From: Candidatus Nomurabacteria bacterium
GTDB lineage: Bacteria; Patescibacteriota; Minisyncoccia; Phycocordibacterales; UBA9973
Direction: 5' to 3'
NCBI GenBank assembly: GCA_023898605.1
Contig: CP060230.1
Coordinates: 241,662-305,661 of the forward strand
Length of the DNA stretch: 64,000 nucleotides
Part shown: one piece after another, positions 8,032 through 58,786 of the stretch
Layout of the letters: each line of letters starts with the position of its first letter
Numbering within the stretch: the stretch's first letter is position 1
Program-made: the position numbers and the translations under genes
The notes under the pieces: model-generated
What the model saw: only the letters and a program-made list of their open reading frames with translations
Database searches by the model: none
What the model was told of the DNA's origin: nothing

Positions 8032-10728
8032 TTATACTAGAACATCATCTTTTATTTTTTTCTTTGTTCTTTTTCCTCCAGTTTTTTTGTTTTCGATTAT
8101 TAGGTTTTCAGCCTTCTCATCTATCACAACTGTGTCGTTCTTTAGAAGTTCTCCTTTTATAATCATAGAAGCAACTGGTGAAAGAATTTTGTTTTGGATT
8201 ATTCTATTTAGTGGTCTTGCACCATAGTGCGGGTCATAACCCTCTTTTGCTAGATACTCTAGAGCACTGTTTGAGATCTCTACTTCTATACCTTTGTCTT
8301 TTAGTCTTTGGGTCATCTTCTCTAGTCTTATCTCTACGATTTCTCTTATCACTTCTTTTGACAAGATATCAAACACTATTGTTTCATCTACACGGTTTAG
8401 GAATTCTGGTCTAAAGAAGTCTTTTAGCGCACCATCTACTTTGTCTTTCATGTTTTTGTAATCCTGCTTTTCGGAATTGTTTGAGAATCCCATAGACTCC
8501 ATCTTGTCGATAAATTGTGATCCCAAGTTACTTGTCATGATTATGATTGTATTCTTGAAGTTTACAACTCTACCTTTTCCATCTGTTAGCCTTCCTTCAT
8601 CTAGTACCTGAAGAAGTATATTGAACACCTCTGGGTGCGCCTTCTCGATCTCATCAAACAAAACTACAGAGTATGGTCTATGTCTTACAGCTTCAGTAAA
8701 CTGTCCACTTTCATCATAACCAACATATCCAGGAGGCGAACCTACTAGTTTTGAAACACTGTGTCTTTCCATGTACTCTGACATATCTACTCTTATCAGT
8801 GCTTTTTCATCATTGAACATAAACTCTGCTAGAGTTTTAGTAAGCTCTGTTTTACCAACACCTGTTGGACCTAGGAAAATAAATGATCCTATTGGTTTGT
8901 TCGGGTCACTTATACCAGCACGAGAGCGTCTCACTACGTCTGCGATTTTCTCGATTGCCTCGTCTTGTCCAACAACACGTTTCTTCAGCTCGTCTTCCAT
9001 GCGAGAAAGCTTCTCTCTTTCTTCTTCTAGCATCTTCGACAGTGGTATCCCTGTCCAACGAGAAACAACTTCAGCTATATCTTCTTCGTTGATTTCTTCT
9101 TTCAAGATTCTTCTAGATTTCTGAAGTTTTTTTAGTCTGGTCATTTTCTGATCAAGTTCTTTTTCTAGAACTGGAATTTTTCCATATCTTATTTCTGCAG
9201 CTTTACCGAGATCGCTTCTAGCTTCAGCACTTTCTGCTTCTAGTCTTATAGACTCTAGTTCCTTCTTGATCTTTGATATAGCAGTAAGAAGTTCTTTTTC
9301 GTTCTTCCATCTGATCTCTATATCAGAAGTCTTTTCTTTCAGGTTTGCGATTTCTTTGTTGATTTCATCAATCCTTTCTTTTGTTTTTTTATTTGTTTCT
9401 CCACCAGATTTTTTCTTTGAATCTATTTCTTTCTTGAGGGCTTCTTTTTCTATCTCATATCTCATGATTTTTCTATGGGCGTCTTCTAGAACTTGGGGTT
9501 TATTCTCAAGAGCAATACGAAGTGACGAAGAAGCTTCGTCGATTAGATCGACTGCTTTGTCTGGTAGAAATCTGTTTGTTATATATCTTGTCGAAAAACT
9601 AACAGCCGCAACTATAGCGTCATCAGTTATACGAACTCCATGATAAAGCTCATACTTTTCTTTCAAACCTCTCAAGATTGCTACAGTGTCTTCTACACTT
9701 GGTTCATCTACAAACACAGGTTGAAAACGTCTAGCAAATGCTGGGTCTTTTTCTATGTGTTTTTGGTATTCTTTTAGAGTTGTTGCACCTATAGCTCTTA
9801 GTTCACCTCTAGCAAGAGCAGGTTTTAGCATGTTTGAAGCATCCATAGCTCCTTCTGCTGCACCAGCACCAACTATTGTGTGTATCTCGTCGATAAATAG
9901 GATTATAGTTCCATCTGCCTTTTCCATTTCTTTCATTACACCCTTTAGTCTTTCTTCGAACTCGCCCCTGTATTTTGTTCCAGCAAGAAGGGAACCGATG
10001 TCTAGAGAAACTATCTCTTTGTTTTTTAGAGATTCAGATACATCCCCTTTTGCTATCCTCTGGGCAAGACCTTCTACAGCAGCAGTTTTTCCTGTACCAG
10101 CTTCTCCGATAAGTATAGGATTGTTTTTTGTTCTACGAGAAAGAATCTGCATGATACGCATTATTTCTGTATCTCTTCCTATAACAGGATCTAGCTTGTC
10201 TTCACGAGCCATGTCTGTCAGGTTTCTTGTGTACTTTGAAAGAAGTCTAAATCTTTTTTCTTTTGGATTTGTATCTATCTTTCCGCTTCTTATATCTTCA
10301 AGTATTGTGAGAGCCTCGTCTTTTGATATTTTGAACTTCGCTAGAAAATCTCTTACATCATCTGAAGAATCTAGTATCGCGATAAAAAGGTGTTCTGTCG
10401 ATATAAACTCATCTTTCAAAAATCTTGCGACTTTTCCAGATTGATCGAGAACTTGTGCCAAGTCTGGTGTAACGTATATCTGAAAAGATGGAGAAAGAGT
10501 TTGTGATCTTTCTGGATCTTCTATTATGTCGATTACAGTTTCAGAAAGAAGTTCAACATCTACATTCATTTTTTCTAGTATAGAAATAACGATACTTTCT
10601 TCTTGCATCAAAAGAGCCGCCAACATGTGATATGTGTTTACATGGTTTTGACCACGCTCGACAGCTAGTTCATGAGAGCGCTTGATTGCTTCTTTTGCTT
10701 TTGTTGTGAAATTGTTGAATGGTTGCAT
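8032..10728 (-). CDS. clpB: ATP-dependent chaperone ClpB (Clp_N, two AAA+ modules, coiled-coil M domain)
   Basis: Two Walker A motifs (GEAGTGKTA, GPTGVGKTE), middle coiled coil, 898 aa. Confidence 0.9.
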   Translation of the reverse strand: MQPFNNFTTKAKEAIKRSHELAVERGQNHVNTYHMLAALLMQEESIVISILEKMNVDVELLSETVIDIIEDPERSQTLSPSFQIYVTPDLAQVLDQSGKVARFLKDEFISTEHLFIAILDSSDDVRDFLAKFKISKDEALTILEDIRSGKIDTNPKEKRFRLLSKYTRNLTDMAREDKLDPVIGRDTEIMRIMQILSRRTKNNPILIGEAGTGKTAAVEGLAQRIAKGDVSESLKNKEIVSLDIGSLLAGTKYRGEFEERLKGVMKEMEKADGTIILFIDEIHTIVGAGAAEGAMDASNMLKPALARGELRAIGATTLKEYQKHIEKDPAFARRFQPVFVDEPSVEDTVAILRGLKEKYELYHGVRITDDAIVAAVSFSTRYITNRFLPDKAVDLIDEASSSLRIALENKPQVLEDAHRKIMRYEIEKEALKKEIDSKKKSGGETNKKTKERIDEINKEIANLKEKTSDIEIRWKNEKELLTAISKIKKELESIRLEAESAEARSDLGKAAEIRYGKIPVLEKELDQKMTRLKKLQKSRRILKEEINEEDIAEVVSRWTGIPLSKMLEEEREKLSRMEDELKKRVVGQDEAIEKIADVVRRSRAGISDPNKPIGSFIFLGPTGVGKTELTKTLAEFMFNDEKALIRVDMSEYMERHSVSKLVGSPPGYVGYDESGQFTEAVRHRPYSVVLFDEIEKAHPEVFNILLQVLDEGRLTDGKGRVVNFKNTIIIMTSNLGSQFIDKMESMGFSNNSEKQDYKNMKDKVDGALKDFFRPEFLNRVDETIVFDILSKEVIREIVEIRLEKMTQRLKDKGIEVEISNSALEYLAKEGYDPHYGARPLNRIIQNKILSPVASMIIKGELLKNDTVVIDEKAENLIIENKKTGGKRTKKKIKDDVLV

Positions 10729-10772
10729 AATTCTTTTGTAACTACAACTATACCACTAATAAAGTGATTTGT

Positions 10773-11492
10773 CTATAGAGAGCTAGATCCGATGATTTTT
10801 AGAGATCCAGCGTCATCTCCTATAAATCCTACGATATTTGCCTCTAGATCGACAGCGATCGATCCTAGCCCAGAAACACTAGGTTTGCTAGACATTATGA
10901 TTTCTCTGGTGCCAGAATCTATTGTTTCTATACCAGAAACGTGTGTGCTTTCTAGAAGTAGATTTTCTGGGTTTATAAGCACGATTGTCTCCCCCGTTCT
11001 AGCATTGTCGTCTTTGGGTCCGACGTATTTGAAAGTATTGCCATCTTTTATCGAAGCGATTACTAGTCCGAAAACTTCACTTGTTTTCTCTAGTGGAGAA
11101 AAAGCATCTCCAAAGAAAACTCCGATTGCATCTCTGTCTAAACTATTTTTATAAACAAGATGTGTTTCGTCTATAGCAAAAGCATATCCAACTAGGGTTC
11201 CGTCTTTTGTTGAGATTGCGATTCTCTTATCTTTTGTTTCTTCGAAAACAGAAACCATCAGTTCACCTTCTCCGGGCTGAACAATAACTTGAGTTTTTGG
11301 TTTTGATTCTATATCTTCAGGAACCACTCTTTCTACTGTGTTTTGAACTATTTTATTTATTGTTTGCGTTGTCTGAAGTGGAGCTTCAGCCAAAAGAGAA
11401 GTTGTGATTATAGAAGTTGCGATAGCAGAAACAAAGCTGATCAAAATACAGAGAAGTATCAATTGTGTTTTTGTAAGATCCTCCATTGACAT
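10773..11492 (-). CDS. membrane-anchored trypsin-like (HtrA/S1C-like) domain protein, possibly catalytically degenerate
   Basis: N-terminal TM. The C-terminal region resembles the HtrA protease core, but the GNSGG serine motif is replaced by SGLGS. Confidence 0.4.
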   Translation of the reverse strand: MSMEDLTKTQLILLCILISFVSAIATSIITTSLLAEAPLQTTQTINKIVQNTVERVVPEDIESKPKTQVIVQPGEGELMVSVFEETKDKRIAISTKDGTLVGYAFAIDETHLVYKNSLDRDAIGVFFGDAFSPLEKTSEVFGLVIASIKDGNTFKYVGPKDDNARTGETIVLINPENLLLESTHVSGIETIDSGTREIIMSSKPSVSGLGSIAVDLEANIVGFIGDDAGSLKIIGSSSL

Positions 11493-11530
11493 AACAATAT
11501 TATATCAAAAAAATAAAAGTAAAAAAGGTT

Positions 11531-12769
11531 TTACGATATTTCGTACTTGTCCAAAATATCTAGAAAGTTTTCTACCAACACATCCACGTCTTTGTCAGTA
11601 TTTTCTCTTCCAAAAGATATGCGCACGAATCCGTCATCATGCTTTGGGTCTTTGCCTATAGCAGGAACTATTCTTGCAATCTCTTCTTCAGAAGATCTAC
11701 ACGCACTACCAGACGAAATACTTATTCCCCTCTCATCCATTTCTATAACCATAAGTTCGCTTTGTATCCCCTTTATAAAAATTCCAGAAATAGATGGCGA
11801 CCTAGAAAAGCCATCTTTTTTGCCTAGTATTTCTATTCTGTCAGAAGATTTTGTTTGTATTTCTTTCTCGAACCTGTCTCTTAGTTTAGAAATTTTTTCT
11901 ATATCACGAGTCATGTTTTTTCTTGTCTCATCTATTGCTACGGCAAAAGCGTGAACCAAGGATGGCGAAATAGTTCCAGGATACAAATCTTCTTCATCTT
12001 TGCCTCCCCAAACTATCGGGGTTATAGGTGTAGAATTTTTCACAAAAAGCATAGACGCGCCTGTTGGACCATAACACTTGGAGCTGTTTAGGATCATTCC
12101 ATCTACTCCCAAAGTTTTTGTATCCAGATCCATATAACAAGAAGCTTGGCACGCATCTACAAAAAACGCTGGGTAGTGAAAGTTTCTATCAAGTGTTTCA
12201 GAAAGTTTGCCACCTTCTTTTCTTTTCAAAGTTTCTTTTTTGAAGTTCCTGATTATTTTTGAAATTTCTTTTATATTCTGAACTGTTCCAATCTCGTTGC
12301 TTACATATGTAAAAGAAACCAATACAGTATTTTCTTTGAGAGTGTTTTTAAACTCTTCTTCGTTTATATAACCATACTCGTCACAAGACACTCTGGAAAC
12401 CTCTACTCCTTCTTTTTCAAAGGAATCGAAAATCCCACGAACAGAATCGTGTTCTATCATACTTACGATAACGTGTGGGTTTTGTATCCCACCCTTTTTT
12501 GCAGCAAGCACAACACCTCTTAGAAAAATATTTGATCCGAGTGTAGCAGAAGAAACAAAAAGTATTTCGTCAGAGTTTCCGCCTATGTTTTTGGCCATTA
12601 TGTCTTTGGCTTCTTTTATTATGTTTCTAGCCTCTATTCCGTTTTGATGAATAGAAGAAGAATTACCAAAATACCTTTCTTTCTGGACAAAGTCCTTCAA
12701 AGCCTCTTTTCTAATAGGTGTTCTAGAGGAATAGTCGAAATAAAGCCTGTTTTTTCTACTTTTGAACAT
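11531..12769 (-). CDS. cysteine desulfurase (class V aminotransferase; IscS/NifS-like)
   Basis: Start set at the MFKSRKN Met (12769) rather than the ORF-track start 13279. Motifs SSATLGSN, HK-like region and C-terminal GSACRS active-site Cys loop. Confidence 0.8.
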   Translation of the reverse strand: MFKSRKNRLYFDYSSRTPIRKEALKDFVQKERYFGNSSSIHQNGIEARNIIKEAKDIMAKNIGGNSDEILFVSSATLGSNIFLRGVVLAAKKGGIQNPHVIVSMIEHDSVRGIFDSFEKEGVEVSRVSCDEYGYINEEEFKNTLKENTVLVSFTYVSNEIGTVQNIKEISKIIRNFKKETLKRKEGGKLSETLDRNFHYPAFFVDACQASCYMDLDTKTLGVDGMILNSSKCYGPTGASMLFVKNSTPITPIVWGGKDEEDLYPGTISPSLVHAFAVAIDETRKNMTRDIEKISKLRDRFEKEIQTKSSDRIEILGKKDGFSRSPSISGIFIKGIQSELMVIEMDERGISISSGSACRSSEEEIARIVPAIGKDPKHDDGFVRISFGRENTDKDVDVLVENFLDILDKYEIS

Positions 12770-21182: not shown

Positions 21183-21221
21183 AAAAAGGCCGGAATAATC
21201 CGGCCTTTTCTTTTTTATTTC

Positions 21222-21521
21222 TTAGGGAATCTGAACGTCACTTCCAACTGTATTAGCTATTATACGAAGTATGGTGAATACAGAAACCATAATAAACATT
21301 CCTATTATTCCCCAAAGCATATGATTCTTACCGTTTTTTCTGGCTTGATCTGTCTTGATCGCTATAAACTCTATAACTCCATACAGGAAAACTATAAGAG
21401 CAACAGCAAACATAAGTATGATAAGCGGGTTTATGATATACGCGTTTATCTTGCCCACTATCTCTTTGACAACTGCGGGTGGTTCACCTGCAGCATATGC
21501 TTTTGGGATAAAATTAATCAT
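21222..21521 (-). CDS. T4SS-pilin-like (TrbC/VirB2-type) small membrane protein, paralog 1 of 5
   Basis: Two hydrophobic helices around a short basic loop (LYGVIEFIAIKTDQARKNGKNHMLWGIIGMFIM...ANTVG). Tandem with four similar genes. Confidence 0.55.
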   Translation of the reverse strand: MINFIPKAYAAGEPPAVVKEIVGKINAYIINPLIILMFAVALIVFLYGVIEFIAIKTDQARKNGKNHMLWGIIGMFIMVSVFTILRIIANTVGSDVQIP

Positions 21522-21531
21522 TCTTTAGAGA

Positions 21532-21891
21532 TTAAAGAGTTGGAATTTCTACTCCTGGGATATCACCTTCTATAATTGTTCCTCCTTGATCTATCTCAAA
21601 AGTATTTGAGATAACTCTTATAAGACCAAACACTGCAAGAATTACAAACAATCCGATGATACCAGAAATCATAACGTTTCTTCCCTTTTCTTTTGTACCG
21701 TCGTCTTTTGCGATAACGAACTGGATAACTCCCCAGATAAACACGATTATCGCTATTGTGATAAGAAACGGAATTATAGCACCAACAATTTCAGCTATAG
21801 TGTTAAATATATCTCCAGCGTCTGTTCCACCTGTTTGAGCAAAAGCCAAAAACGGTGTCAAAGCTATAGAGATTGGTAATATTTTTTTCAT
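21532..21891 (-). CDS. T4SS-pilin-like small membrane protein, paralog 2
   Basis: Signal peptide. FIWGVIQFVIAKDDGTKEKGRNVMISGIIGLFVILAVFGLIRVISNTF. Confidence 0.55.
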   Translation of the reverse strand: MKKILPISIALTPFLAFAQTGGTDAGDIFNTIAEIVGAIIPFLITIAIIVFIWGVIQFVIAKDDGTKEKGRNVMISGIIGLFVILAVFGLIRVISNTFEIDQGGTIIEGDIPGVEIPTL

Positions 21892-21976
21892 AATAATTTA
21901 TAAATTAAGAATTCTTATAAATAAACGAGTCTTATGAAAACTCTTGTTTACAAAGTGTATTATACCACAGTATGGG

Positions 21977-22447
21977 CTAGTATGTACCAGGGTCAGCTAC
22001 AGGGAGTTGTGGAATAGCGTTTTGCTGACCAAATGTGTTTGAGAGCACTGCTACAAGCCCCCACACAGAAAGCATGACGAAGAGTGCAAATATTCCCCAT
22101 AGTATATACTGAGCGCCCTCTTTTCTTTTTGAAGCGTTATCAGCATTTCTCATATACATAACAACTCCCCAGATAAACAATACTAGTGCAATAGCAAAAG
22201 CTAGAGGTACAAGAGCTTGAGTTATAAAACATATAACCCATATAACCAAACTTTTTAGATCTGTTAGTTCACTAGGACAAAAAGCGCTAGAAGAAGATTC
22301 TGAACCACTGGCTTCGAAAACAATATCTCCGGAGTCGCCAGATATGAAGATATCTGGACCAGGACCAGCAGCTAGAGCAAACGTCCCTACAAAAATTATG
22401 CTTAGCACCGCTATCGATATTAAGTTTTTATATATATTTCTTTTCAT
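21977..22447 (-). CDS. T4SS-pilin-like small membrane protein, paralog 3
   Basis: FIWGVVMYMRNADNASKRKEGAQYILWGIFALFVMLSVWGLVAVLSNTF. Confidence 0.55.
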   Translation of the reverse strand: MKRNIYKNLISIAVLSIIFVGTFALAAGPGPDIFISGDSGDIVFEASGSESSSSAFCPSELTDLKSLVIWVICFITQALVPLAFAIALVLFIWGVVMYMRNADNASKRKEGAQYILWGIFALFVMLSVWGLVAVLSNTFGQQNAIPQLPVADPGTY

Positions 22448-22450
22448 ATT

Positions 22451-22888
22451 TTAACAAGTTACACCGGGTTTTAGACAATCTATAGTTCCTCCCAGAACCT
22501 CAGCAAGTGTCCATGCGCCGAGTATTATAGCCGCACCGATAAGAGTCCACATAAGCGCTTTCTTCGCCTTTTCAAGCTCAGCAGGCTTTCCTCTGGCTAC
22601 CACAAACATAAATCCTGTGTAGATAACCATGAGTGTTATTATCGGAACCATTATAAATATAACAATATCCAGTATCTTGGATATAAGTACGGGTATAGAG
22701 TTTATCTCGTCTGAAAGTGGGTTGTTGAGTTGGAAATCTAGAGTTGCTGACTCTCCTGCACCAGAGGATCCTCCGTCTGGTCCACCACCAGACCCTCCAT
22801 CTTGTGCAAAAGAAACTCCAGACAAAATCAAAAACCATGTCATTGATATTAGAACTATTTTTTTCAAAGATTTTTTGTTCACATTCAT
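22451..22888 (-). CDS. T4SS-pilin-like small membrane protein, paralog 4 (Gly/Ser-rich N-terminal region)
   Basis: Same TM-loop-TM architecture (GFMFVVARGKPAELEKAKKALMWTLIGAAIILGAW). Confidence 0.5.
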   Translation of the reverse strand: MNVNKKSLKKIVLISMTWFLILSGVSFAQDGGSGGGPDGGSSGAGESATLDFQLNNPLSDEINSIPVLISKILDIVIFIMVPIITLMVIYTGFMFVVARGKPAELEKAKKALMWTLIGAAIILGAWTLAEVLGGTIDCLKPGVTC

Positions 22889-22897
22889 ATTATAGTA

Positions 22898-23320
22898 TTA
22901 CCCTTCTAGATAAATCAATTCTGGATCAACACCTAGCATAGTCATGAGCGTATATATAGCTAGCCAAGCAGCAAGAGCTATAACAAGTCCCCACAATACA
23001 TTCCAGAAAATCTTCTTGGCCTTCGAGACATTTCCAGGGTTTGACCCTGCTGTAAGGTATAGAAATCCGGCATACATAAACGCCAGCGCAGCAAGAGGCA
23101 TAGCAATAGTAAATAGAAGAAAATCTATAACATTCTCCATTGTTCCTATAACAAATTCAAAGTTGCACGGATATTCTGGATTGCCATCAGCTCCATAACC
23201 ACCGCAATGGACCAAGCCAACAGGCTCTGTTGTGTATGTTGTTTCTGCGTGAGCAAAACTACCAAAGAAAACGGTAGATATAACTGCCAACATTATAGAA
23301 AATAAAATTACTTTTTTCAT
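22898..23320 (-). CDS. T4SS-pilin-like small membrane protein, paralog 5
   Basis: Signal peptide. AGFLYLTAGSNPGNVSKAKKIFWNVLWGLVIALAAW. Confidence 0.5.
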   Translation of the reverse strand: MKKVILFSIMLAVISTVFFGSFAHAETTYTTEPVGLVHCGGYGADGNPEYPCNFEFVIGTMENVIDFLLFTIAMPLAALAFMYAGFLYLTAGSNPGNVSKAKKIFWNVLWGLVIALAAWLAIYTLMTMLGVDPELIYLEG

Positions 23321-23329
23321 ACTTATATT

Positions 23330-24643
23330 TTATCTCAAAAGATTATCCAGGGCATCATTTGCTCTCTTGAGTGCACCTTCTGGTGAATAAAATCCTGTTG
23401 TTACGTCTTTGATCATGTTTTGGAATATTCCACTTGTAGATGTCGGATTTGGATCATACCAACTTCTCGCCAAAAGCGCTGATTGATAGAAAGAGTTTAT
23501 ATACGGATCTGCTGGAAGCGATGAAAGTAGATCTCTTCTAACTGGTATTGTTTTCAAAAAACTAGACAAAAGTGCAACCGAGTCAGAAGAAGACAGGTCT
23601 TGTGCTATGTAGAAAGCAGCGGTTCTTTGTGCTGTGTTTCTTGTTGTTGTGATTCCATATACACGCCCAAAAGTAAGATCATTAGAAGAAGACTCTAGTT
23701 GTGGTATACGAGTTACATCAAAGTTTAGGTTTGGGTTCTTGGCTCTTATGTCATAAACTTCGCTCGCGTATCCTATATACATAGCCAAGTTCCCTGCTAT
23801 AAAATAATCTTTTGAATCAGGAAGAGATTTGCTCCAAGAAAAGTAATCGCTAGAAGGGTTAGAGAAGTCTGTATAGAACCTTATGATACTCGCTCCAGGA
23901 GATTCTCCGCCAGAAGTTGTAGCAGAAAGAGTACTGTAGTAACTACCGTCTGAATCACGAGTTACTATCTTGTTTCCTGTTTGTATAAAGAACATAGAAA
24001 GTATGTCCTTGGCATGAGTCACGTTGTCGTATTCTCCTAGAGATATAGCGCTTTTAGAAAGTATGCCTTGAGAAGTTTTTTCTGAAAGAGTTGGTACGAT
24101 CTTGTAAAGATCTCCCCAAGTAGCCGGCGGAGAAACAATACCCGCAGAATTGAACATGTCTCTATTCCAATAAAGAACCAACGGGTCGATAGTAAGCGGG
24201 AATGCCATAACACCGTCATTTCCTAGAAATAGTTCTGCGCCTTCTACAAACGTATTTCTATAAGTTCTAAGTGGGTATGTATCAAAAGATGTTGTAAACG
24301 ATTTGTTCAAATCTCGGAGAAGTGTATCGCTTGTAACCATAAACATATCTGGACCATTTCCCGAAGCAAGTGCCTCAGATAGATCTGCTCCAAATGTTGC
24401 GTAGTTTTTCTCTACATAAGAGATTGTCAGATTCTCGTACTTGGATTGTATAGGAGATATAACTTCCCTCATTGTAGAGCTTGGGAAAAATCCCCATATA
24501 ACAACTTTTCCAGAAAGTGTATCGGCTTGGTTTTTACTACCCAAGTTTATAGCACCAGAAAAAATCATCACAGCGATTATGATTATAAAACCAAACGCTA
24601 CAAGTAAAATTATTTGAAATGGTGATATTTTATTTGCTCCCAT
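23330..24643 (-). CDS. membrane-anchored extracellular solute-binding protein (ABC-transporter SBP family 1-like)
   Basis: N-terminal TM anchor and SBP-like fold. Immediately downstream (same strand) of the pilin-like array. Confidence 0.5.
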   Translation of the reverse strand: MGANKISPFQIILLVAFGFIIIIAVMIFSGAINLGSKNQADTLSGKVVIWGFFPSSTMREVISPIQSKYENLTISYVEKNYATFGADLSEALASGNGPDMFMVTSDTLLRDLNKSFTTSFDTYPLRTYRNTFVEGAELFLGNDGVMAFPLTIDPLVLYWNRDMFNSAGIVSPPATWGDLYKIVPTLSEKTSQGILSKSAISLGEYDNVTHAKDILSMFFIQTGNKIVTRDSDGSYYSTLSATTSGGESPGASIIRFYTDFSNPSSDYFSWSKSLPDSKDYFIAGNLAMYIGYASEVYDIRAKNPNLNFDVTRIPQLESSSNDLTFGRVYGITTTRNTAQRTAAFYIAQDLSSSDSVALLSSFLKTIPVRRDLLSSLPADPYINSFYQSALLARSWYDPNPTSTSGIFQNMIKDVTTGFYSPEGALKRANDALDNLLR

Positions 24644-24645
24644 AA

Positions 24646-25179
24646 TTATTGGCTTTTCAATATTATCCCATAGTGATGAGCACCTGCGTCAAACTCCTTT
24701 TCCACATTCATGCCAAATTTCATAAATAAATCTTTTGCATCTGTCTTTGTGAAAAGGTGATCCTTGTGTGGACCGATACCACCCCAAGAGTCTGTCCAAT
24801 CTATAACAACTATTCTTCCGCCCTTTTTTAGTGTTCTAGTAGCTTCTTTTATTGCACCAAACTTATCTTCTACAAGAAACAATGTGTTTGCAAAAAAAAC
24901 AAAATCTAGAAATCCATCGTTTATTTTTGTACCGTTTTTCTTCTCGATATCACCCCAGATAACTGTAGTGTTTTCGTATACACCTTCTTTGACTTCTTTC
25001 TCTAGCCTGTCACAAATACTTTTCTGCACATCGACAGCAAAAACTCTACCAGTAGTACCAACTATTGGTCCAAGAACTTTTGTAAAACCACCTGTCCCAC
25101 ATCCAAAGTCACCCACTTTGTGACCCTCGTGAACTTTTATTTCTTTCAACGCTTTTTTAGGATCTAGGAAATCTTGCAT
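24646..25179 (-). CDS. class I SAM-dependent methyltransferase
   Basis: DFGCGTG SAM-binding motif. Confidence 0.7.
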   Translation of the reverse strand: MQDFLDPKKALKEIKVHEGHKVGDFGCGTGGFTKVLGPIVGTTGRVFAVDVQKSICDRLEKEVKEGVYENTTVIWGDIEKKNGTKINDGFLDFVFFANTLFLVEDKFGAIKEATRTLKKGGRIVVIDWTDSWGGIGPHKDHLFTKTDAKDLFMKFGMNVEKEFDAGAHHYGIILKSQ

Positions 25180-25184
25180 AGTCT

Positions 25185-27665
25185 TTATATTGTAGTGACA
25201 GAAGCGATAGCGTCTCCTGCTCTTAGTTTCATAATAGAAACTCCTTGAGTTTGTCTACCTAGGCTAGGTACTGATTCTAGTTTTACTCTGATCACTTGAC
25301 CCTTTTTGCTCATAGCGATCATTTCTTCTTCATCTCTTACAACTCTACCTACAATTATCGGACCTGTTTTTTCTGTAACTTTTGCAGTTTTTACTCCTCC
25401 ACCTCCACGCTTTTGTGCTTTGTATTCTGTGATCTTTGTTTTCTTTCCAAGACCGTTTTTACTCATAACTAGAAGCTCTGCATCTTTTTCGTTCTTTTCA
25501 ACTACCACCGCACCGACAATCTCGTCTCCTTTCTTTAGACTCATGCCTTTTACTCCACCAGCTGCTCTACCCATTTCACGCAAATCTGTAGAACGGAATC
25601 TGATAGACATACCCTCGTGTGATACAAGTACGACGTCTTTGTCCTTGTCGACAGCTCTAACTGCAACTAGTTCATCGTCTTTTGCGAGTTTGATAGATAT
25701 GATTCCGCTTCTTCTTACATCTTTGAAACTTTCTGCGCTAACCTTTTTACCGACTCCATTTTTTGTAATCATAACGAGTTCTGTTATGGCATCCTTCTTT
25801 CCTTTTTCTATTGGAAGAATAGAAGTGACTCTTTCTTCTCCATCGAGTGACAAGAAGTTCATTATAGATTTACCTTTTGTTGCACGCTTTCCTTCTGGCA
25901 AATCATACATCTTGATCTGGTAAGCCTTACCTCTGTTGGTGAAGAATAGTAGATCACTGTGCGTACTTGCCTGAACAAGCATAGTTACGAAATCTTCCTC
26001 TTTTGTTTCGAGATCTATAACTCCAACGCCACCTCTTTTCTGTGAGCGGTATTCACTAGGATCAGTTCTTTTTACATAACCACCTTGTGTAAATACCAAA
26101 ACAGAATCTTTTTCTGGGATAAGATCTTCATCACTTATAGATTTGACTCCACCTTTTACAAGTTTTGTTCTTCTTTCGTCACCGTACTTTTCTTTTATTT
26201 CTACAAGTTCGTCTTCGATAGTTTTCAGAATCTTTTTTGGACTAGCCAAAAGCGCTTCGAGTTCTGCAATAAGTTTTTGTTTTTCTTTTAGTTCTTCTTC
26301 GACTTGCTTTCTTTCTAGACCTGCAAGCTTCTGAAGTCTCATATCTAAAATCGCGTCTGTTTGCAAATCTGAGAATTTGAATTCTTTCATCAACTTTACT
26401 TTTGCTTCAGATGCGTCTTTTGATCCTCGTATGATACTTATTATCTTGTCGATATGATCAAGAGCCTTCTTTAGTCCGAGAAGTATATGTTCTCTATCTT
26501 TTGCTTTCCTTAGATCAAACTCTGTTCTTCTTCTTACAACTTCTTTTCTGTGCTCTATGAAATTTTCAAGAAGTCCCTTTAGAGATAGAAGTTCTGGAGT
26601 ACCTTTGACAAGAGCAAGCATATTGAAGTTGAAGTTTTGTTCTAGCTGAGTGTGCTTGTATAGATAATTCAAAACTTTCTGTGGGTGTGCGCCGCTCTTG
26701 AGGTCTATCACCACCTTTATATCTTTTGTAGACAGGTCACGTATGTCTTTGATACCTTCTATCTTCTTTTGCTGAACCAAATCAGCAATAGAGGTTATAA
26801 GGTTTGATTTCTTAACCTGAAAAGGTATAGAAGTTATAACGATTTGGAATTGTCCGGTTTTTACTTCTACAACTTCTGCCACACCACGAGTCACAATACC
26901 GCCTCTTCCTGTTCTGTATGCCTGCTCTATCTCTTTCTTGCCATAGATTATTCCACCAACTGGAAAATCTGGACCCTGTATAAACTCACATAGATCCTCT
27001 ACGTTTGCATCTTTGTTATTTATGAGGTGAACTGTTGCATCTATAACTTCACTTAGATTGTGTGGTGGTATAGCAGTTGCCATACCCACAGCAATACCCA
27101 TAGTTCCGTTTAGAAGAAGTGCTGGAACAGCCGCTGGTAAAACAGCCGGTTCTTTTCTAGATGCGTCATAGTTTGGTCTCCAGTCTACGGTATCTTTATC
27201 GAGATCTTTGAGCATCAAAGTAGCGATCTTTGTCATTCTTGCTTCTGTATAACGCATAGCAGCTGCTCCGTCTCCGTCGATAGAACCGAAGTTACCTTGT
27301 CCAAGAACAAGCGGATATCTATAAGAAAAATCTTGTGCCATGTTCACCATCGAATCATAAACAGCAGTATCTCCATGAGGGTGATACTTTCCGAGAACGT
27401 CTCCAACTACTGCTGCAGACTTCTTGGGTTTAGATGTAGGAGAAAGACTCATCTCGTTCATAGCATATAGAATTCTTCTATGAACGGGCTTCAAACCATC
27501 TCTTACGTCTGGAAGAGCACGAGAAGTTATAACGCTCATAGCATAAGAAATATAAGACTCCTGCATCTCTTCTACTATAGACTTTGGCACTACTGAAGAA
27601 GCGAGAACTAGTCCCCCTTCATCTTTCTTGTTATCGTCGTTTTTCTCTACTTTTTTCTTTGGCAT
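25185..27665 (-). CDS. gyrA: DNA gyrase subunit A
   Basis: Active-site region [28 protein letters not shown]. GyrA box and C-terminal beta-pinwheel repeats. Confidence 0.9.
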
Positions 27666-30677: not shown

Positions 30678-31280
30678 ATGGATGAATACCAAAGAGAAGA
30701 TTTAACACCTAAAAAAAGAAAGAATCCTATTGCTTCTTTCTTTGAACTTTTTAGATATACACTTATTGCACTCGCAATAGTTTTCGTTGTGAGAACATAC
30801 ATCGCTCAACCGTTTATAGTAGATGGATCTTCTATGTACCCTACCTTCGAAGACAAGCAGTACCTTATCGTAGACGAGATAAGTTATAGATTTGAAGATC
30901 CACAAAGGGGTGATGTCATAATCTTCCGCTACCCAAAGAACCCTTCTGCTTTCTACATAAAAAGAGTTATAGGTCTTCCAGGAGAAACTGTAACAATTAT
31001 AAGTGGAAAAGTTATGATAAAGAATTCTGAATATCCAGATGGATTCTATATCGAAGAACCATACATAAACGAAATGGATCTAAACGACAACCTAACTCGT
31101 ATCTTGGAAGAAGATGAATATTTTGTTATGGGAGACAATAGAAACTTTAGTAGCGATTCAAGACATTGGGGCAATGTACCAAGAGAAAACATAGTTGGAA
31201 CACCATTATTTAGATTGTTCCCTGTCGACAGCATTTCGATAAAACCAGGAGATTATGAAGTATTAACATTAGAAAACTAA
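30678..31280 (+). CDS. lepB: signal peptidase I
   Basis: GSSMYPTF catalytic-Ser box and GDNRNFSSDSRHWG box E. Confidence 0.85.
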   Translation: MDEYQREDLTPKKRKNPIASFFELFRYTLIALAIVFVVRTYIAQPFIVDGSSMYPTFEDKQYLIVDEISYRFEDPQRGDVIIFRYPKNPSAFYIKRVIGLPGETVTIISGKVMIKNSEYPDGFYIEEPYINEMDLNDNLTRILEEDEYFVMGDNRNFSSDSRHWGNVPRENIVGTPLFRLFPVDSISIKPGDYEVLTLEN

Positions 31281-36086: not shown

Positions 36087-36257
36087 ATGGCTAAGAAAAC
36101 TCCACAATCACAAAAGGTTACTTTTACAGCAAAGAAGGTCGTCAAAGAGCCGACTGTGGTTTCTTTCAATACAAAACAAGGTCGAGTAAGTTTTACTGCT
36201 CGGGTAAATGTTGAGAAGCCAGTGCAAGTCAGCTTCAAGGCAAAGAATAAAAAATGA
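36087..36257 (+). CDS. small repeat-containing protein (56 aa), putative antitoxin-like partner of the PIN protein
   Basis: Manual translation MAKKTPQSQKVTFTAKKVVKEPTVVSFNTKQGRVSFTARVNVEKPVQVSFKAKNKK. Its TGA stop overlaps the ATG of the next gene (ATGA). TATAAT 8 nt upstream. Confidence 0.45.
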   Translation: MAKKTPQSQKVTFTAKKVVKEPTVVSFNTKQGRVSFTARVNVEKPVQVSFKAKNKK

Positions 36258-36808
36258 AACTCTACCTAGATACAAACGTTATTCGAGATTACCTCGAAAA
36301 TAGAAATACAAACTCTATACAGCTATTGGAGCTTGCCAGACATAAGGGGTGGGAGTGTGTTACGTCTGCCTTTACGATGATGGAAGTTGCGGACCTTGAA
36401 CAAGATAGTATCTTCTTTCAAAAAACGGTCATACGTAAAAAATGGGATGCTGATAAGTTCTTGCGAGAACGCAGACAAAAAGAACTTACAGATAGCGATT
36501 ATCAAGACCTTGAAGAATATCTGGACGTAGTACCTGTACGTCTACCTTTTTTGACTTTCTTCAACTTGAGCGAAGACGGTTGGCAAATAGCACAATATAT
36601 TGCTTCGCACTCTGTTTTATCGGCAGTTGATACCATACACCTAGCAACGGCATACTCTGCGAAAAGCGACATTGTAGTTACAAACGATAGTGGCTTCATA
36701 AAGCACGGAAATAAGATACTGGAAAAGAGTAAGCGAGCAGGACAGATAGCAATCTGTTTGCCAGAGAAGGTTGAAGAAACGGCACAAAAACTAGGCATGA
36801 CTACCTAG
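36254..36808 (+). CDS. PIN-domain protein (VapC-like nuclease fold, 184 aa)
   Basis: LYLDTNVI...D..HLA.A..........VTND acidic-residue pattern of PIN domains. Confidence 0.6.
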   Translation: MKLYLDTNVIRDYLENRNTNSIQLLELARHKGWECVTSAFTMMEVADLEQDSIFFQKTVIRKKWDADKFLRERRQKELTDSDYQDLEEYLDVVPVRLPFLTFFNLSEDGWQIAQYIASHSVLSAVDTIHLATAYSAKSDIVVTNDSGFIKHGNKILEKSKRAGQIAICLPEKVEETAQKLGMTT

Positions 36809-39218: not shown

Positions 39219-39698
39219 TCAGGCTCTGGTAGAAAATTTATGGTACAAATCGTTTAGAAAAGTGATTTCTATATTCTTGTTTCGTATTAAAATAGAACAT
39301 TTATTTTCATCTGGAGACAAAACTCCGATGATAGCATTATTGTCTTTAAGAAATTCTACAAGACATCCAAAATCTCCGTCTCCTGTAATTAAAATACATT
39401 TATCAAAAGATTTAGTGTAGAAATCAGAGACCGTTTTCAGTACTAATTCTGCATCACAATTCCCTTTGATTTTCTCTCCTACTGACACCGTTTGTTTAAA
39501 GACCAAAATATAACCACAGCTTTGTAAATGTTCATAGAATTTAACTCTTTCTGGTACCAAGCCGATGAAAAGATAAACATTGCTAGCATTATATTTCTGT
39601 CTAAGCCATCCCCTCAATTTCTTGTAATCAAGATTAAAACCAAGTTCTTTAGCAGAGCGGTATAAATTATTACCATCTATATAAATATTGGTTTTCAT
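39219..39698 (-). CDS. NYN-domain (LabA/Zc3h12a-like PIN-fold) putative RNase
   Basis: IYIDGNNLYRSAKELG...GNCDAELVL...LITGDGDFGCLVEFL: NYN acidic-residue pattern. Confidence 0.6.
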   Translation of the reverse strand: MKTNIYIDGNNLYRSAKELGFNLDYKKLRGWLRQKYNASNVYLFIGLVPERVKFYEHLQSCGYILVFKQTVSVGEKIKGNCDAELVLKTVSDFYTKSFDKCILITGDGDFGCLVEFLKDNNAIIGVLSPDENKCSILIRNKNIEITFLNDLYHKFSTRA

Positions 39699-43589: not shown

Positions 43590-44610
43590 CCAAAACCCCT
43601 CCAGCTACCCCTCAAGCAGAACACATTGCTGTTCTTTATAGTACACACTAGGAATTCTAAAATCAATCACTTCTCTCGGTCGGTCATTGATGAAGGAAAG
43701 AATACTTTCAATTTCTTCATCAGTTACGGTACTAACGTCTCTCTTCTTGGGTACAAAACATCTAATCCATCTATTGGTATTCTCTACCAGCCCCTTCTCC
43801 CATGAATGATAGGGATGTGTGAAGTATATGTTAGTATTTAATTGCTCTTCAATCACTTTCCAGTGATTGAAAGCGATGTCATTGTCAGTGGTTATAGTTT
43901 TAAGAGATTGACCATTGAACATTTCAGAAAGCGCGTGATTGATAGTCACGTGTTTTCTGTTTGGGAGCCTCTTTATGAGAGTATGTTTAGTTAAGCGATC
44001 AGTCGCCACAAGAAGTGACCAGGTGCTTTTTTTAGAAACAATAAAATCTACCTCCCAGTGACCAACACCAACTAATACGGGCCTATTTTTAATATATTTT
44101 CTATTATCTTTAGGGTTATCATATTTATACCTCTTCCTTCCACTCTTTTTCTTGTTCCATGACCAAAACAGGTACCTTTCTAGACATCTAGAGTCAATAA
44201 ACTTATATATTGCTTTATCTGAACATGTTATTTCATGTTCTTTATCTAAATACCCACTTATTTGTTTAGGTGACCATTTTTCAATAAGTTTCTTCTCCAC
44301 AAACCCAACTAAGAATCTATCCATAGAGACTTTCAAGCACTGCCTCTTTGATCTCCATCTTTTAATATATGATCTATGTTGGGCTTTATCTGCTATATAT
44401 TCTCCATTTACTCTATTTCTGTTGACTTCACTACTTATAGTACTTGGGCTTCTACCTAATAGCATAGCTATATCTCTAATCTTTATGCTTCTACTCAATG
44501 ATTTTTCAATCACAAATCTTTCCTCAAAAGAAAGATGTTTATATTGTTTTTTCTTTTTCATATGACAATAAACTTAACTTATAAATTGTTCTGCTTCAAA
44601 GTTCGTTGGG
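43590..44610 (-). mobile_element. IS30-family insertion sequence (~1 kb), boundaries approximate
   Basis: DDE transposase ORF. Imperfect terminal inverted repeats sharing aagcagaaca near 43611-43622 and 44590-44601 (reverse complement). Confidence 0.6.
43605..44561 (-). CDS. IS30-family transposase (N-terminal HTH, DDE catalytic domain)
   Basis: HWEVDFI, TDNDIAF, PYHSWEKGLVENTN motifs typical of IS30 transposases. Confidence 0.85.
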   Translation of the reverse strand: MKKKKQYKHLSFEERFVIEKSLSRSIKIRDIAMLLGRSPSTISSEVNRNRVNGEYIADKAQHRSYIKRWRSKRQCLKVSMDRFLVGFVEKKLIEKWSPKQISGYLDKEHEITCSDKAIYKFIDSRCLERYLFWSWNKKKSGRKRYKYDNPKDNRKYIKNRPVLVGVGHWEVDFIVSKKSTWSLLVATDRLTKHTLIKRLPNRKHVTINHALSEMFNGQSLKTITTDNDIAFNHWKVIEEQLNTNIYFTHPYHSWEKGLVENTNRWIRCFVPKKRDVSTVTDEEIESILSFINDRPREVIDFRIPSVYYKEQQCVLLEG

Positions 44611-57061: not shown

Positions 57062-58786
57062 TTATCCTTCGCAACTTACACAAACACTATCCCCTGCTAC
57101 GTACATTACTTTTGGTTTCTTTGAATCCATTTCTTGGAGTTTCTTTCTTCCGAACTGTTGTGCAGCATTCATACTGTGTTGGTAATAAAGAGTCTTTACT
57201 CCCTTCTCCCATGCATATAGATATAGTGAGTTTAGTTCTTTTACTGGCATGTTTGGATCTATCATTATATTTAGTGATTGAGCTTGGTCTATGTATTTTT
57301 GTCTTGTAGCTGCCTGATCTACGATAACTTTTTGGTCTATTTCACTAAATGTTCTAAATACTGTTTTCTCGTGATCTGAAAGAAAATCTAGGTGTTGAAC
57401 TGAACCATCGTTATCTCTTATGCTATCCCAGATTTCTTTTGTATTCTTTCCTTTCTTTTCTAGAAGTTTTTCTAGAATAGGATTTCTTATAGTTACCTTC
57501 ATCTTGTCTACGTCTTTTACAAAAGTATTGGACATAAGTGGCTCTATACTTTGAGAAACTTGTCCCAATATAAACGCAGAAGAAGTAGTAGGTGCAATAG
57601 CCATAAGTGTTGTGTTTCTTCTACCGTATCCTTTCAAAACTTCTGGTTCTCCATATTCTTTTGCAAGGTCTTCTGAAGCTTTGTAAGATCTTTCTTTTAT
57701 AAACTTGAATATTTCTTCGTTTAACTTAGCTGCTTCTTCACTTTCAAAAGGAATATTGTTCTCTTGTAAAAATGTGTGCCATCCAAGAACTCCTAGTCCT
57801 AGTGCTCTGTGTTCTTTTGCAAACTTGTGAGCACGCTTCATGAAATAAAATGCAGATTCTTTGTGTGAGTCTCCGCTATCTCTATAATCTTCTAGTCTGT
57901 TTATAAAATCAGTAAGAACAGAATCAAGAAAAGTAACTAGAGTCTCTACTGCATCTGTATCTTTCCATTCGTTGTAATGTCTGAGGTTCATAGAAGAAAG
58001 GCAACAAACGAAAGAAACTTCGTCGTTAGAAGGAAGACATATTTCAGAACAAAGATTGCTTCCATGTATTGTCATTTTTTTGTCTTTGTATACATCTACA
58101 GTGTTGTTGTTTACATTGTCACTAAATAGTATGTATGGGTAACCTATTTCTGTTCTTCTTTGTATTATTTTTGCCCAAACTTTTCTCTTATCTTCGTCTC
58201 CATCTACCATTTCTTTTAGCCACTTGTCGCCTACAGTAACAGCGTATGTAGATTCTTGTATAGGGTGACCTTCCTTTCCTATATTTAGATACTCTTCAAT
58301 ATCGGGGTGTTCTACTGGTAGGTATGGCGCAACGTGTCCACGTCTAACAGAACCTTGACTAACTATATTGATAAGGTTATCGAAAAGCTCCATAAAATGA
58401 ACAGAACCGGAAGAATGACCATTGCCTGATATTTCTGTACCACGAGGACGAAGACCACCAAAGAATACAGATGTACCACCACCATATTTTGTCATCATTC
58501 CCACCTCGGCATGTGTATATAGAATCCTAGACATGTCATCTTCTGTATAACTTCCGAAGCAACTTATCGGCAATCCTCTAGAAAGTCCGTAGTTTGCCCA
58601 TATCGGTGTGGCCAAAGAGTAGAAACCTCGAGACATATAATCATAAAACTTATCTGCAAACCCTGGTTTGCCGAGATACTTTTCTGCAGTCTCTGCTATA
58701 GCACGAATACGGTCTTCGGCTTCCATGCCTTTTGAGACGTATCCTTTTGATAAAAATTTTCTACTGTTTTCGTTTAGCCAATACAT
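57062..58786 (-). CDS. nrdA: ribonucleotide reductase catalytic (alpha) subunit lacking an N-terminal ATP-cone
   Basis: HGSNLCSEICLPS active-site motif. C-terminal Cys pair (CVSCEG). 574 aa. Confidence 0.75.
   Translation of the reverse strand: MYWLNENSRKFLSKGYVSKGMEAEDRIRAIAETAEKYLGKPGFADKFYDYMSRGFYSLATPIWANYGLSRGLPISCFGSYTEDDMSRILYTHAEVGMMTKYGGGTSVFFGGLRPRGTEISGNGHSSGSVHFMELFDNLINIVSQGSVRRGHVAPYLPVEHPDIEEYLNIGKEGHPIQESTYAVTVGDKWLKEMVDGDEDKRKVWAKIIQRRTEIGYPYILFSDNVNNNTVDVYKDKKMTIHGSNLCSEICLPSNDEVSFVCCLSSMNLRHYNEWKDTDAVETLVTFLDSVLTDFINRLEDYRDSGDSHKESAFYFMKRAHKFAKEHRALGLGVLGWHTFLQENNIPFESEEAAKLNEEIFKFIKERSYKASEDLAKEYGEPEVLKGYGRRNTTLMAIAPTTSSAFILGQVSQSIEPLMSNTFVKDVDKMKVTIRNPILEKLLEKKGKNTKEIWDSIRDNDGSVQHLDFLSDHEKTVFRTFSEIDQKVIVDQAATRQKYIDQAQSLNIMIDPNMPVKELNSLYLYAWEKGVKTLYYQHSMNAAQQFGRKKLQEMDSKKPKVMYVAGDSVCVSCEG

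Follow-up and report, generated by a model that had tools for sequence, protein, structure and literature searches.

Living attached to other microbes, Patescibacteria account for a large part of bacterial diversity. Many of them encode a type IV secretion system (T4SS): in a survey of 3,035 Patescibacteria genomes, VirB4 was found in 2,417 (80%) and VirB2-like pilins in 1,948 VirB4-containing assemblies, of which 1,135 have a pilin near virB4 and 813 have none near it (Quinonero-Coronel et al. 2025, PMC12102498). The same survey counted 441 pilin arrays of 2-11 genes in 383 assemblies, with an average identity of ~25% between copies; the arrays were most abundant in Microgenomatia and Saccharimonadia, and the multiple copies were proposed to aid adaptation to different host strains (PMC12102498). 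In the VirB4 phylogeny that has been published, the Patescibacterial T4SS falls into MPF-FATA, a class that includes conjugative elements of Tenericutes. In Southlakia epibionticum, the sole genetically tractable species, the T4SS and its pilin array are essential: six PF18895 pilins (SEML1_0014-0019) are encoded in the T4SS cluster and were scored as essential by transposon sequencing (Tn-seq), with polar effects possible (Wang et al. 2023, PMC10633639). Reviews of 2024-2025 favour the speculation that the system serves as a conduit through which the cell exchanges material with its host or takes material up from it. Here, we describe an array of five pilin genes at positions 21222-23320, on the minus strand, of a stretch of 64,000 nucleotides (nt) of bacterial chromosome (contig CP060230.1 of assembly GCA_023898605.1, positions 241,662 to 305,661), which is referred to as a whole as the window.

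A first-pass annotation, made by a model from the letters of the window, had reported five consecutive minus-strand genes for proteins of 99-156 amino acids (aa), had assigned them to the TrbC/VirB2-type T4SS pilins, and had placed their source among the CPR bacteria (candidate phyla radiation). The genes were found where it had placed them, the source is a metagenome-assembled genome (MAG) of Candidatus Nomurabacteria (Paceibacteria), and the five genes belong to the Patescibacterial T4SS_pilin family, which is related to VirB2/TrbC. The array had also been treated as a possible novelty, a view that does not hold, as tandem pilin arrays in Patescibacteria have already been published (PMC10633639, PMC12102498) and that of the window is a further example of the described type. 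Taken alone, the window thus supplies one more array. Comparison with related loci gives an incremental insight, i.e., no new system, but a modestly sharper form of an open question. By sequence comparison, the five genes are five ancient orthogroups in a fixed order, and they appear to be non-redundant. The features that appear to be undescribed are this fixed five-orthogroup set, its near-universal coupling to an orphan solute-binding protein (SBP) in a gyrA-led block far from virB4, and fusions between members of the set; no mention of a link between SBP and pilins was found in a literature search. An import-type receptor coupled to pilins is the sort of clue that could make the speculation about uptake from the host approachable by experiment. 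The reading that we prefer, to which we give belief and doubt in equal measure, is that the helical hairpins encoded by the five genes form a hetero-oligomeric surface filament or the wall of a conduit, most probably via a T4SS core encoded elsewhere, and that the SBP serves there as a receptor for host glycans. The suggestion in the first-pass annotation of a non-conjugative surface filament for attachment to the host is in line with existing speculation in the literature on Patescibacteria.

Family membership and architecture of the five proteins

The five genes, in the direction of transcription, are as follows (a slash marks the cleavage site of the signal peptide).

22898-23320, minus strand: p5, the leading pilin gene, 140 aa; signal peptide AHA/E; two conserved Cys before helix 1; PF18895 31.6 bits
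22451-22888, minus strand: p4, 145 aa; signal peptide SFA/Q; invariant NPL before helix 1; PF18895 40.6 bits, PF04956 36.6 bits
21977-22447, minus strand: p3, 156 aa; signal peptide ALA/A; acidic, Ser/Gly-rich N-terminal tail; C-terminal NTF...IPQLP; PF18895 28.0 bits
21532-21891, minus strand: p2, 119 aa; signal peptide AFA/Q; acidic C-terminal tail; PF18895 30.8 bits
21222-21521, minus strand: p1, the final gene, 99 aa; no canonical signal peptide; IINPLI opening helix 1; PF18895 28.8 bits

Some gene callers place the start of p5 nine codons later, giving a protein of 131 aa. The best conserved and most VirB2-like of the five paralogues is p4, which is 100% identical to NCBI H6791_01475 (Candidatus Nomurabacteria MAG). 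A profile built from p1-p5 detected no sixth pilin copy in the window.

The HMMER test that the first-pass annotation had named was run, and its family assignment is borne out: all five proteins score above the gathering threshold of PF18895 (T4SS_pilin; 26.6 bits), and p4 is also above that of PF04956 (TrbC/VirB2; 27.9 bits), to which p5 (19.3 bits) and p2 (13.2 bits) match below threshold and p1 and p3 do not match. Because four of the PF18895 scores lie barely over the threshold and the proteins are very hydrophobic, a control with reversed sequences was run. The reversed p1-p5 gave no PF18895 or PF04956 match at E<=1, their best matches (11-19 bits) being to unrelated membrane families, which rules out a compositional artefact as the source of the Pfam matches. 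The precomputed annotation of independent metagenome contigs agrees with the assignment. The five proteins are also related to one another: BLASTP identities are 36-43% among p1, p2 and p3, with p2 at 41-43% to the other two, 34% between p4 and p5, and 15-25% between the two groups, and alignment of the profiles of the five orthogroups with hhalign gave homology probabilities of 95-99.9%. In NCBIfam, p1-p5 align to nearly the full 80-position model NF045849 (Mbov_0395, the pilin-like protein of a Mycoplasma integrative and conjugative element, ICE) with E values of 6e-6 to 2e-3; the scores of 17.9-25.8 bits are below the curated cut-off of 40 for all five, and the similarity indicates distant homology, outside that equivalog. 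Type IV pilins were considered and rejected, as all five proteins lack the class III motif (G, cleavage site, F/M-x-x-x-E) in their first 45 residues and none of them has an N_methyl or T2SSG Pfam match.

Each of the proteins comprises two long hydrophobic helices, connected by a loop of 12-14 residues that contains 3-5 Lys/Arg, and tails, N-terminal to helix 1 and C-terminal to helix 2, that contain 0-2 Lys/Arg and up to 7 Asp/Glu. Sec-type signal peptides are present in p2, p3, p4 and p5, with the cleavage motifs AFA, ALA, SFA and AHA, respectively. This is the architecture that the first-pass annotation had described, except that p1 has no canonical signal peptide. Of the sequence motifs it had listed, that of the W/Y-G type exists, as [FIM]-x-[WYTA]-G, but sits within helix 1 rather than ending it, and "SNTF" is limited to p2 and p3. 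An AlphaFold2 (AF2) model of p4, built from an alignment of 14 sequences (mean pLDDT 64), predicts a hairpin of residues 65-97 and 102-139, preceded by a signal helix and a linker that is disordered. According to the positive-inside rule, the loop is predicted to be cytoplasmic and both termini to be outside. VirB2 and TraA propilins are known to adopt this topology, with the loop inside and both termini outside. No dedicated maturation gene (cyclase, TraF-type) was recognised beside the array; an S26 signal peptidase encoded at 30678-31280 resembles housekeeping LepB.

Orthogroups, fusions and concatemers

Related loci were collected by scanning one genome per GTDB species with an alignment of homologues of p4, which gave 80 loci, with most counts made on 79 of them. 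The source genome of the window is outside the GTDB representatives; the best locus has 55% identity. Exactly five pilin open reading frames (ORFs) are present in 45 of the 79 loci, and when each ORF is assigned to the best-matching paralogue of the window, the order p5>p4>p3>p2>p1 is identical in 39 of the 79. Loci that deviate from this order are mostly arrays cut by contig ends or arrays with extra copies of the p2/p3 type. Core identity within orthogroups across species is 41-54% (the value for p4 is inflated because p4 was the search key), compared with 15-43% between the paralogues of the window. In addition, each of four orthogroups has an invariant motif of its own: NPL in p4, the Cys pair GLVPCG...C.F in p5, the C-terminal IPQLP in p3 and IINPLI in p1. 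The array contains no DNA repeats longer than 35 nt, and for this reason a recent tandem duplication or gene-conversion cassette was ruled out. Together, the order, the identities, the motifs and the lack of repeats argue that the five genes are ancient components, each maintained individually, rather than the product of a recent expansion.

Members of the set are fused in some species. Two pilin modules lie in one reading frame in 12 loci, of which ten are fusions of a p2-like module to p3 and two are fusions of p4 to p3. The two ends of the cassette are also the places where additional protein is found. Orthologues in the p5 position can reach 363-617 aa, with N-terminal extensions of 250-500 aa (fn3-like where Pfam matched) before a C-terminal pilin module, and orthologues in the p1 position can have C-terminal extensions of ~240-680 aa, which gave no Pfam match in the two that were scanned (examples of extended end positions are L025:4177-5982, L035:8128-9981, L023:8067-9776, L042:11218-13488 and L058:11232-13556). 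Both end positions of the cassette seem to be attachment points for extra extracellular domains.

Beyond these loci, the profile of the five paralogues was run with HMMER against 1.84 billion cluster representatives and matched 51,467 proteins at E<=0.001, many of which have 2-17 modules per chain (e.g. P0138-P0145, P0173 and P0225). The modules of these concatemers are joined by short, Cys-containing linkers without internal signal peptides, the protein P0141 having 17 modules in 1,775 aa, with 34 predicted transmembrane helices. Any pilus model for this pilin family must accommodate such covalent concatemers.

The gyrA-led neighbourhood of the cassette

The genes that precede the cassette, and two features of its non-coding DNA, are the following.

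25185-27665, minus strand: gyrA, heading the co-directional block, 5 nt upstream of the methyltransferase gene; Pfam DNA_topoisoIV and DNA_gyraseA_C on the identical ORF
24646-25179, minus strand: class-I S-adenosylmethionine (SAM) methyltransferase, 177 aa, 2 nt upstream of the SBP gene; Pfam Methyltransf_31/11/25
23330-24643, minus strand: SBP gene, 437 aa, N-terminal membrane anchor; stop codon 9 nt ahead of the p5 start
21892-21976, minus strand: gap between p3 and p2, the sole long gap of the cassette (85 nt), with an extended -10-like TGgTATAAT at 21967-21959
21184-21209, both strands: GC-rich hairpin with T-runs on both sides; the minus strand reads GGCCGG..CCGGCC then TTTTTTC

The first-pass annotation had placed the array upstream of the SBP gene, whereas it lies downstream (3') of this gene, on the same strand, when read as transcribed. 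The SBP matches PF13416 (SBP_bac_8; 73.0 bits) and PF01547 (SBP_bac_1; 56.3 bits) and is therefore of the sugar/oligosaccharide type; among solved structures, the closest to it is 4r9f (MBP1), which matches over the full length (query residues 18-428) at E=2.7e-11. Pfam scans of 47 ORFs of the window outside the cassette (96-898 aa, including every ORF of at least 400 aa) detected no ABC permease or ATPase (BPD_transp, ABC_tran), and none lies beside the SBP gene in two metagenome contigs (L087 and L088). Since no permease or ATPase is found among the scanned ORFs, the SBP is an orphan within the window.

The position of the SBP gene is conserved. The block that recurs in relatives consists of a gene for a metallo-beta-lactamase (MBL)-fold protein, gyrA, the methyltransferase gene, the SBP gene and the pilin genes, in this order, and the genes downstream of the array vary. 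Among the 79 loci, the upstream genes include that for the SBP in 71, the methyltransferase in 70 and GyrA in 63. The SBP gene directly abuts the first pilin gene in 66 of the 75 loci with at least 1.5 kb of upstream sequence, with gaps mostly of -4 to +11 nt, and three more of the 75 apparently differ only through longest-ORF starts that overlap the SBP gene. The same arrangement is given by the precomputed annotation of the contigs L087 and L088, which were reached independently via homologues of the SBP. The SBP itself has diverged to ~37% identity, compared with ~67% for GyrA, and has retained its position. In many relatives, the stop codon of the methyltransferase gene overlaps the start of the SBP gene by 4 or 8 nt.

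The linkage of the SBP gene to the cassette is not universal. Four-gene arrays without an SBP gene are present in L043, L054, L067 and L078, and no large, ATPase-sized ORF is near any of them. In the first three (Lloydbacteria/Parcubacteria group) the variant is p4>p3>p2>p1, without p5, and gyrA and the methyltransferase gene are likewise absent; these arrays adjoin a co-directional run of genes which, by gene sizes, is a putative ribosomal-protein cluster. Many third-party annotation (TPA) MAGs titled "uncultured Candidatus Saccharibacteria bacterium" (L010, L012, L018, L022, L023 and ~20 more) share the synteny of gyrA, SBP gene and pilin genes. Their GyrA proteins are 59-72% identical to that of the window (mean 67%), which is the same range as for loci labelled as Paceibacteria, so the Saccharibacteria label is unreliable or very coarse. 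L088 encodes, on the opposite strand and just downstream of the cassette (L088:13905-15062, minus strand), a 385-aa protein with a weak match to PF18896 (SLT_3, lysozyme-like), which could be a VirB1-like wall hydrolase; no counterpart of it lies beside the array of the window.

Within the cassette, the junctions are 9 nt (p5/p4), 3 nt (p4/p3), 85 nt (p3/p2) and 10 nt (p2/p1). The p3-p2 gap is also the long one in 39 relatives, with a median of 113 nt compared with 9-18 nt at the other junctions, and the element TGnTAnAAT is present in 27 of 40 p3-p2 gaps (the 39 relatives and the window). In the window, TGgTATAAT, which is a match to the consensus only, may be an internal promoter for p2-p1. 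A pentamer, GGTCG, was found in 25 of the 40 gaps, 14-74 nt (mostly 34-54 nt) beyond the -10-like element, and is flanked in several loci by short covarying stems (CCTGC/GCAGG, CTAC/GTAG, ACAAT/ATTGT); it is absent from the gap of the window and from that of its nearest relative, L007. The gap may hold a promoter plus an element of the 5' untranslated region (5'-UTR) serving p2-p1. An Rfam scan found no RNA family within or beside the array. The hairpin at 21184-21209 is likely to be a bidirectional terminator, closing both the pilin operon and the convergent plus-strand gene. No Shine-Dalgarno motif is recognisable upstream of any gene in the block, so that such motifs give no guide to which pilin is the major one.

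The remainder of the window is ordinary chromosome, with genes for ParB, RelA/SpoT, ClpB, IF-2, GyrA, HisRS, SecA and ribonucleotide reductase, a 16S rRNA gene and seven tRNA genes. The only hints of mobile or toxin-antitoxin-like material are an ORF of 318 aa with an HTH_38 domain (43605-44561) and proteins with PIN/NYN domains (36254-36808 and 39219-39698), ~15-20 kb from the array; the HTH_38 domain is presumably of the kind found in some transposases. The small subunit of ribonucleotide reductase carries an N-terminal ATP-cone, and none was detected on the 574-aa large subunit (58826-60100 and 57062-58786, respectively). An ATP-cone on the radical-generating subunit is known, although uncommon.

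Possible assembly, rival explanations and known systems

In the reading that we prefer, transcription would read through from gyrA, with a possible second promoter before p2-p1, and would end at the bidirectional terminator. The hairpin proteins would be inserted into the cytoplasmic membrane by Sec/YidC, four of them would be trimmed by signal peptidase, and the Lys/Arg loop would then face the cytoplasm, with the acidic N- and C-termini facing outside. The hairpins would co-assemble into one hetero-oligomeric polymer at the cell envelope, either a filament like a pilus or a conduit wall, and polymerisation would most probably involve the Patescibacterial T4SS core (VirB4/TrsD/VirB3/VirB6), with its genes at another place on the chromosome. 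The SBP, anchored in the membrane and translated just before the pilins, would be a dedicated partner that recognises glycans of the host, or captures them, where the assembly stands. The fixed set of five, the conservation of the orthogroups, the fusions and the essentiality of the S. epibionticum pilins point to joint use of the five proteins rather than to their use as alternatives, and the predicted termini-out topology, together with the bulky domains on some p5 orthologues, suggests that the variable parts are placed outside. What the analysis shows is the family, the hairpin architecture, the orthology, the synteny with the SBP gene and the fusions; we infer that the proteins polymerise beyond the membrane, that they depend on a T4SS and what the SBP does.

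Several observations weigh against this reading. As the first-pass annotation had noted for VirB4 and VirD4, genes of a T4SS are missing from the window: the Pfam scans detected no VirB4, coupling protein, VirB6, VirB3/PrgI, TrsD or relaxase among the scanned ORFs, which cover 21 kb on one side of the array and 40 kb on the other, and all ORFs of at least 400 aa are housekeeping genes. When ORFs of at least 350 aa within 10 kb of the cassette were clustered over the 80 related loci, no VirB4-like ATPase or other T4SS core gene recurred; the sole Walker-A protein directly flanking an array is UvrA (L025, 65 nt downstream), in a scan that covered recurring and directly flanking ORFs. Paceibacteria T4SS clusters have a pilin of their own, two genes from virB4 (VirB2-x-VirB4-TrsD-VirB3; published tables, PMC12102498). 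According to the reviews of 2024-2025, no pilus has been demonstrated in Patescibacteria and the role of the system is completely unknown. The concatemers fit an array of hairpins embedded in the membrane no less well than a filament made from free subunits. Structure searches returned a generic helical hairpin, with thousands of unrelated hairpins among which VirB2/TraA were not singled out, and a sequence profile searched against PDB chains gave no match at E<=10. Where genomes are small and rearrange slowly, synteny can be conserved without any functional coupling of SBP and pilins.

The published census bears on the same point. In the part of it that was available (PMC12102498), five draft genomes that bear the cassette could be matched by name, and VirB4 is listed there for two of them (L070 and L030) and not for the other three, L059 (548 kb), L079 (408 kb) and L054 (658 kb). 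These missing entries are weak evidence, because the genomes are drafts, but they stand against a background in which 80% of genomes are VirB4-positive. For one of the three, GCA_000994705.1 (Nomurabacteria GW2011_GWB1_40_7, L059), Table S3 of the same source, as far as it was available, gives two non-adjacent VirB2 matches. At 8170-11777 of this locus, an SBP gene is followed by five pilin ORFs, four of which are above the current PF18895 threshold. To judge from this one genome, the SBP-five-pilin cassette may have been under-counted in the published survey.

The Paceibacteria T4SS clusters with a pilin of their own, the census drafts and the polyproteins make a T4SS-independent membrane complex the main rival explanation. 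The five hairpins would pack next to one another in the cytoplasmic membrane as a hetero-oligomeric ring or pore (ten helices per set) and would form, with the orphan SBP, a new device for uptake or sensing, the likeness to VirB2 reflecting ancestry only. Such a complex would fit the linkage of SBP and cassette, which is tighter and better conserved than any linkage to a T4SS gene, and an SBP with no ABC permease or ATPase among the scanned ORFs, as well as chains of up to 34 transmembrane helices in which modules are covalently joined. It would also suit the three of five census drafts without a listed VirB4, although these may be incomplete. However, there is no known transporter or sensor of two-helix subunits plus an SBP, the array of S. 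epibionticum lies within a T4SS cluster and shares its essentiality, p5 orthologues have large N-terminal domains with fn3, as if for display at a distance from the membrane, and the match of p4 to VirB2/TrbC is above a curated threshold. On balance, we regard this explanation as unlikely, though it deserves to be kept in mind.

A bolder form of the idea is that the SBP-five-pilin cassette is a self-contained module that has departed from the T4SS, in which a channel or filament and a glycan-binding protein would take material from the host surface without VirB4. We find this rather more doubtful. If true, no earlier device for uptake or sensing would have combined pilin modules with dependence on an SBP, and the cassette would give a concrete handle on how bacteria that lack most biosynthesis feed on their hosts.

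It is improbable, in our judgement, that the five proteins are interchangeable variants of a major pilin, one or another of which would change the exterior of a T4SS pilus to suit different host strains or to avoid recognition, as proposed for the multi-copy virB2 of Bartonella and Anaplasma and suggested for Patescibacteria (PMC12102498). Their divergence (15-43%) is like the ~25% average in Patescibacterial arrays, variability is greatest in the exposed N- and C-terminal tails, and copy number ranges from 2 to 9 among the arrays of relatives, the smallest counts being mostly due to contig ends. This explanation is disfavoured by the orthology and the fusions: the five form separate orthogroups, in the same order across species and with invariant motifs of their own, and members are fused together in some species. 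Moreover, there are no DNA repeats to drive recombination or gene conversion, and all six S. epibionticum pilins are essential (with the reservation about polar effects). Paceibacteria pilins that are five fixed, non-interchangeable, sometimes fused components argue against the published idea of alternatives for different hosts.

Finally, that the five are generic two-helix membrane proteins (holin-like or immunity-like), with pilin matches due to hydrophobic composition and an accidental neighbourhood, is hardly credible, for even though p1, p2, p3 and p5 are only 1-5 bits above the PF18895 threshold, weak sub-threshold matches to unrelated membrane families occur and fold searches yield thousands of unrelated hairpins, the reversed sequences, of equal composition and hydrophobic pattern, lose the pilin matches, the proteins are homologous to p4, which is well above both thresholds, all five match NF045849 over nearly its full length, and order and neighbourhood are conserved across at least 66 species loci.

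The preferred reading, that of a jointly assembled filament or conduit wall served by a T4SS core, can be set beside several known systems. There are precedents for SBPs that serve a T4SS by binding a signal derived from the partner or host: PrgZ of pCF10, a peptide-binding protein of the OppA type, is encoded with the transfer genes and has no permease of its own, and ChvE of Agrobacterium binds galactose and acts via VirA. The SBP of the window differs in being of the SBP_bac_1/8 oligosaccharide type, with no sensor kinase or permease partner known. The archaeal Ced and Ted systems are reportedly (Beltran et al. 2023) conjugation-derived machines for DNA import in single-membrane cells, with VirB2-like hairpin pilins. 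They resemble the window, by description only, in these hairpins and in the single membrane, and import is the direction that its SBP would suggest; they differ in that their pilin genes lie beside a VirB4-like ATPase and in having no SBP. The VirB4s of both are listed in Table S2 of PMC12102498.

Bartonella/Anaplasma, as host-associated bacteria with several divergent tandem VirB2 paralogues, offer another likeness, but their multiple virB2 copies are regarded as alternatives that serve to vary antigens or host range (cited in PMC12102498), whereas the five genes of the window are fixed orthogroups whose conserved order and fusions point to joint use. The Mycoplasma ICE protein Mbov_0395 / MMCAP2_0565 is a VirB2-like protein from a wall-less monoderm lineage (Mollicutes/Tenericutes); it is encoded by a single gene in an ICE, in contrast to the five-gene chromosomal cassette of the window. 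With TrbC/VirB2/TraA (PF04956), the window shares a member over threshold (p4), the leader peptide, two helices, a basic loop and the predicted topology of loop in and termini out. Those systems use one major pilin plus VirB5, whereas the window belongs to a monoderm and has five paralogues, of which p1, p2, p3 and p5 are below the PF04956 threshold, and no T4SS neighbours.

The closest relatives remain the other Patescibacterial arrays, which are alike in their PF18895 membership, in the signal peptide and hairpin, in consisting of tandem paralogues that are divergent to the same degree, and in a chromosomal location without a relaxase context. The array of S. epibionticum comprises six genes, inside the T4SS cluster and beside a VirB6-like gene, whereas that of the window comprises five, is separated from any T4SS gene by more than 20 kb, and comes after the genes for GyrA, the methyltransferase and the SBP.

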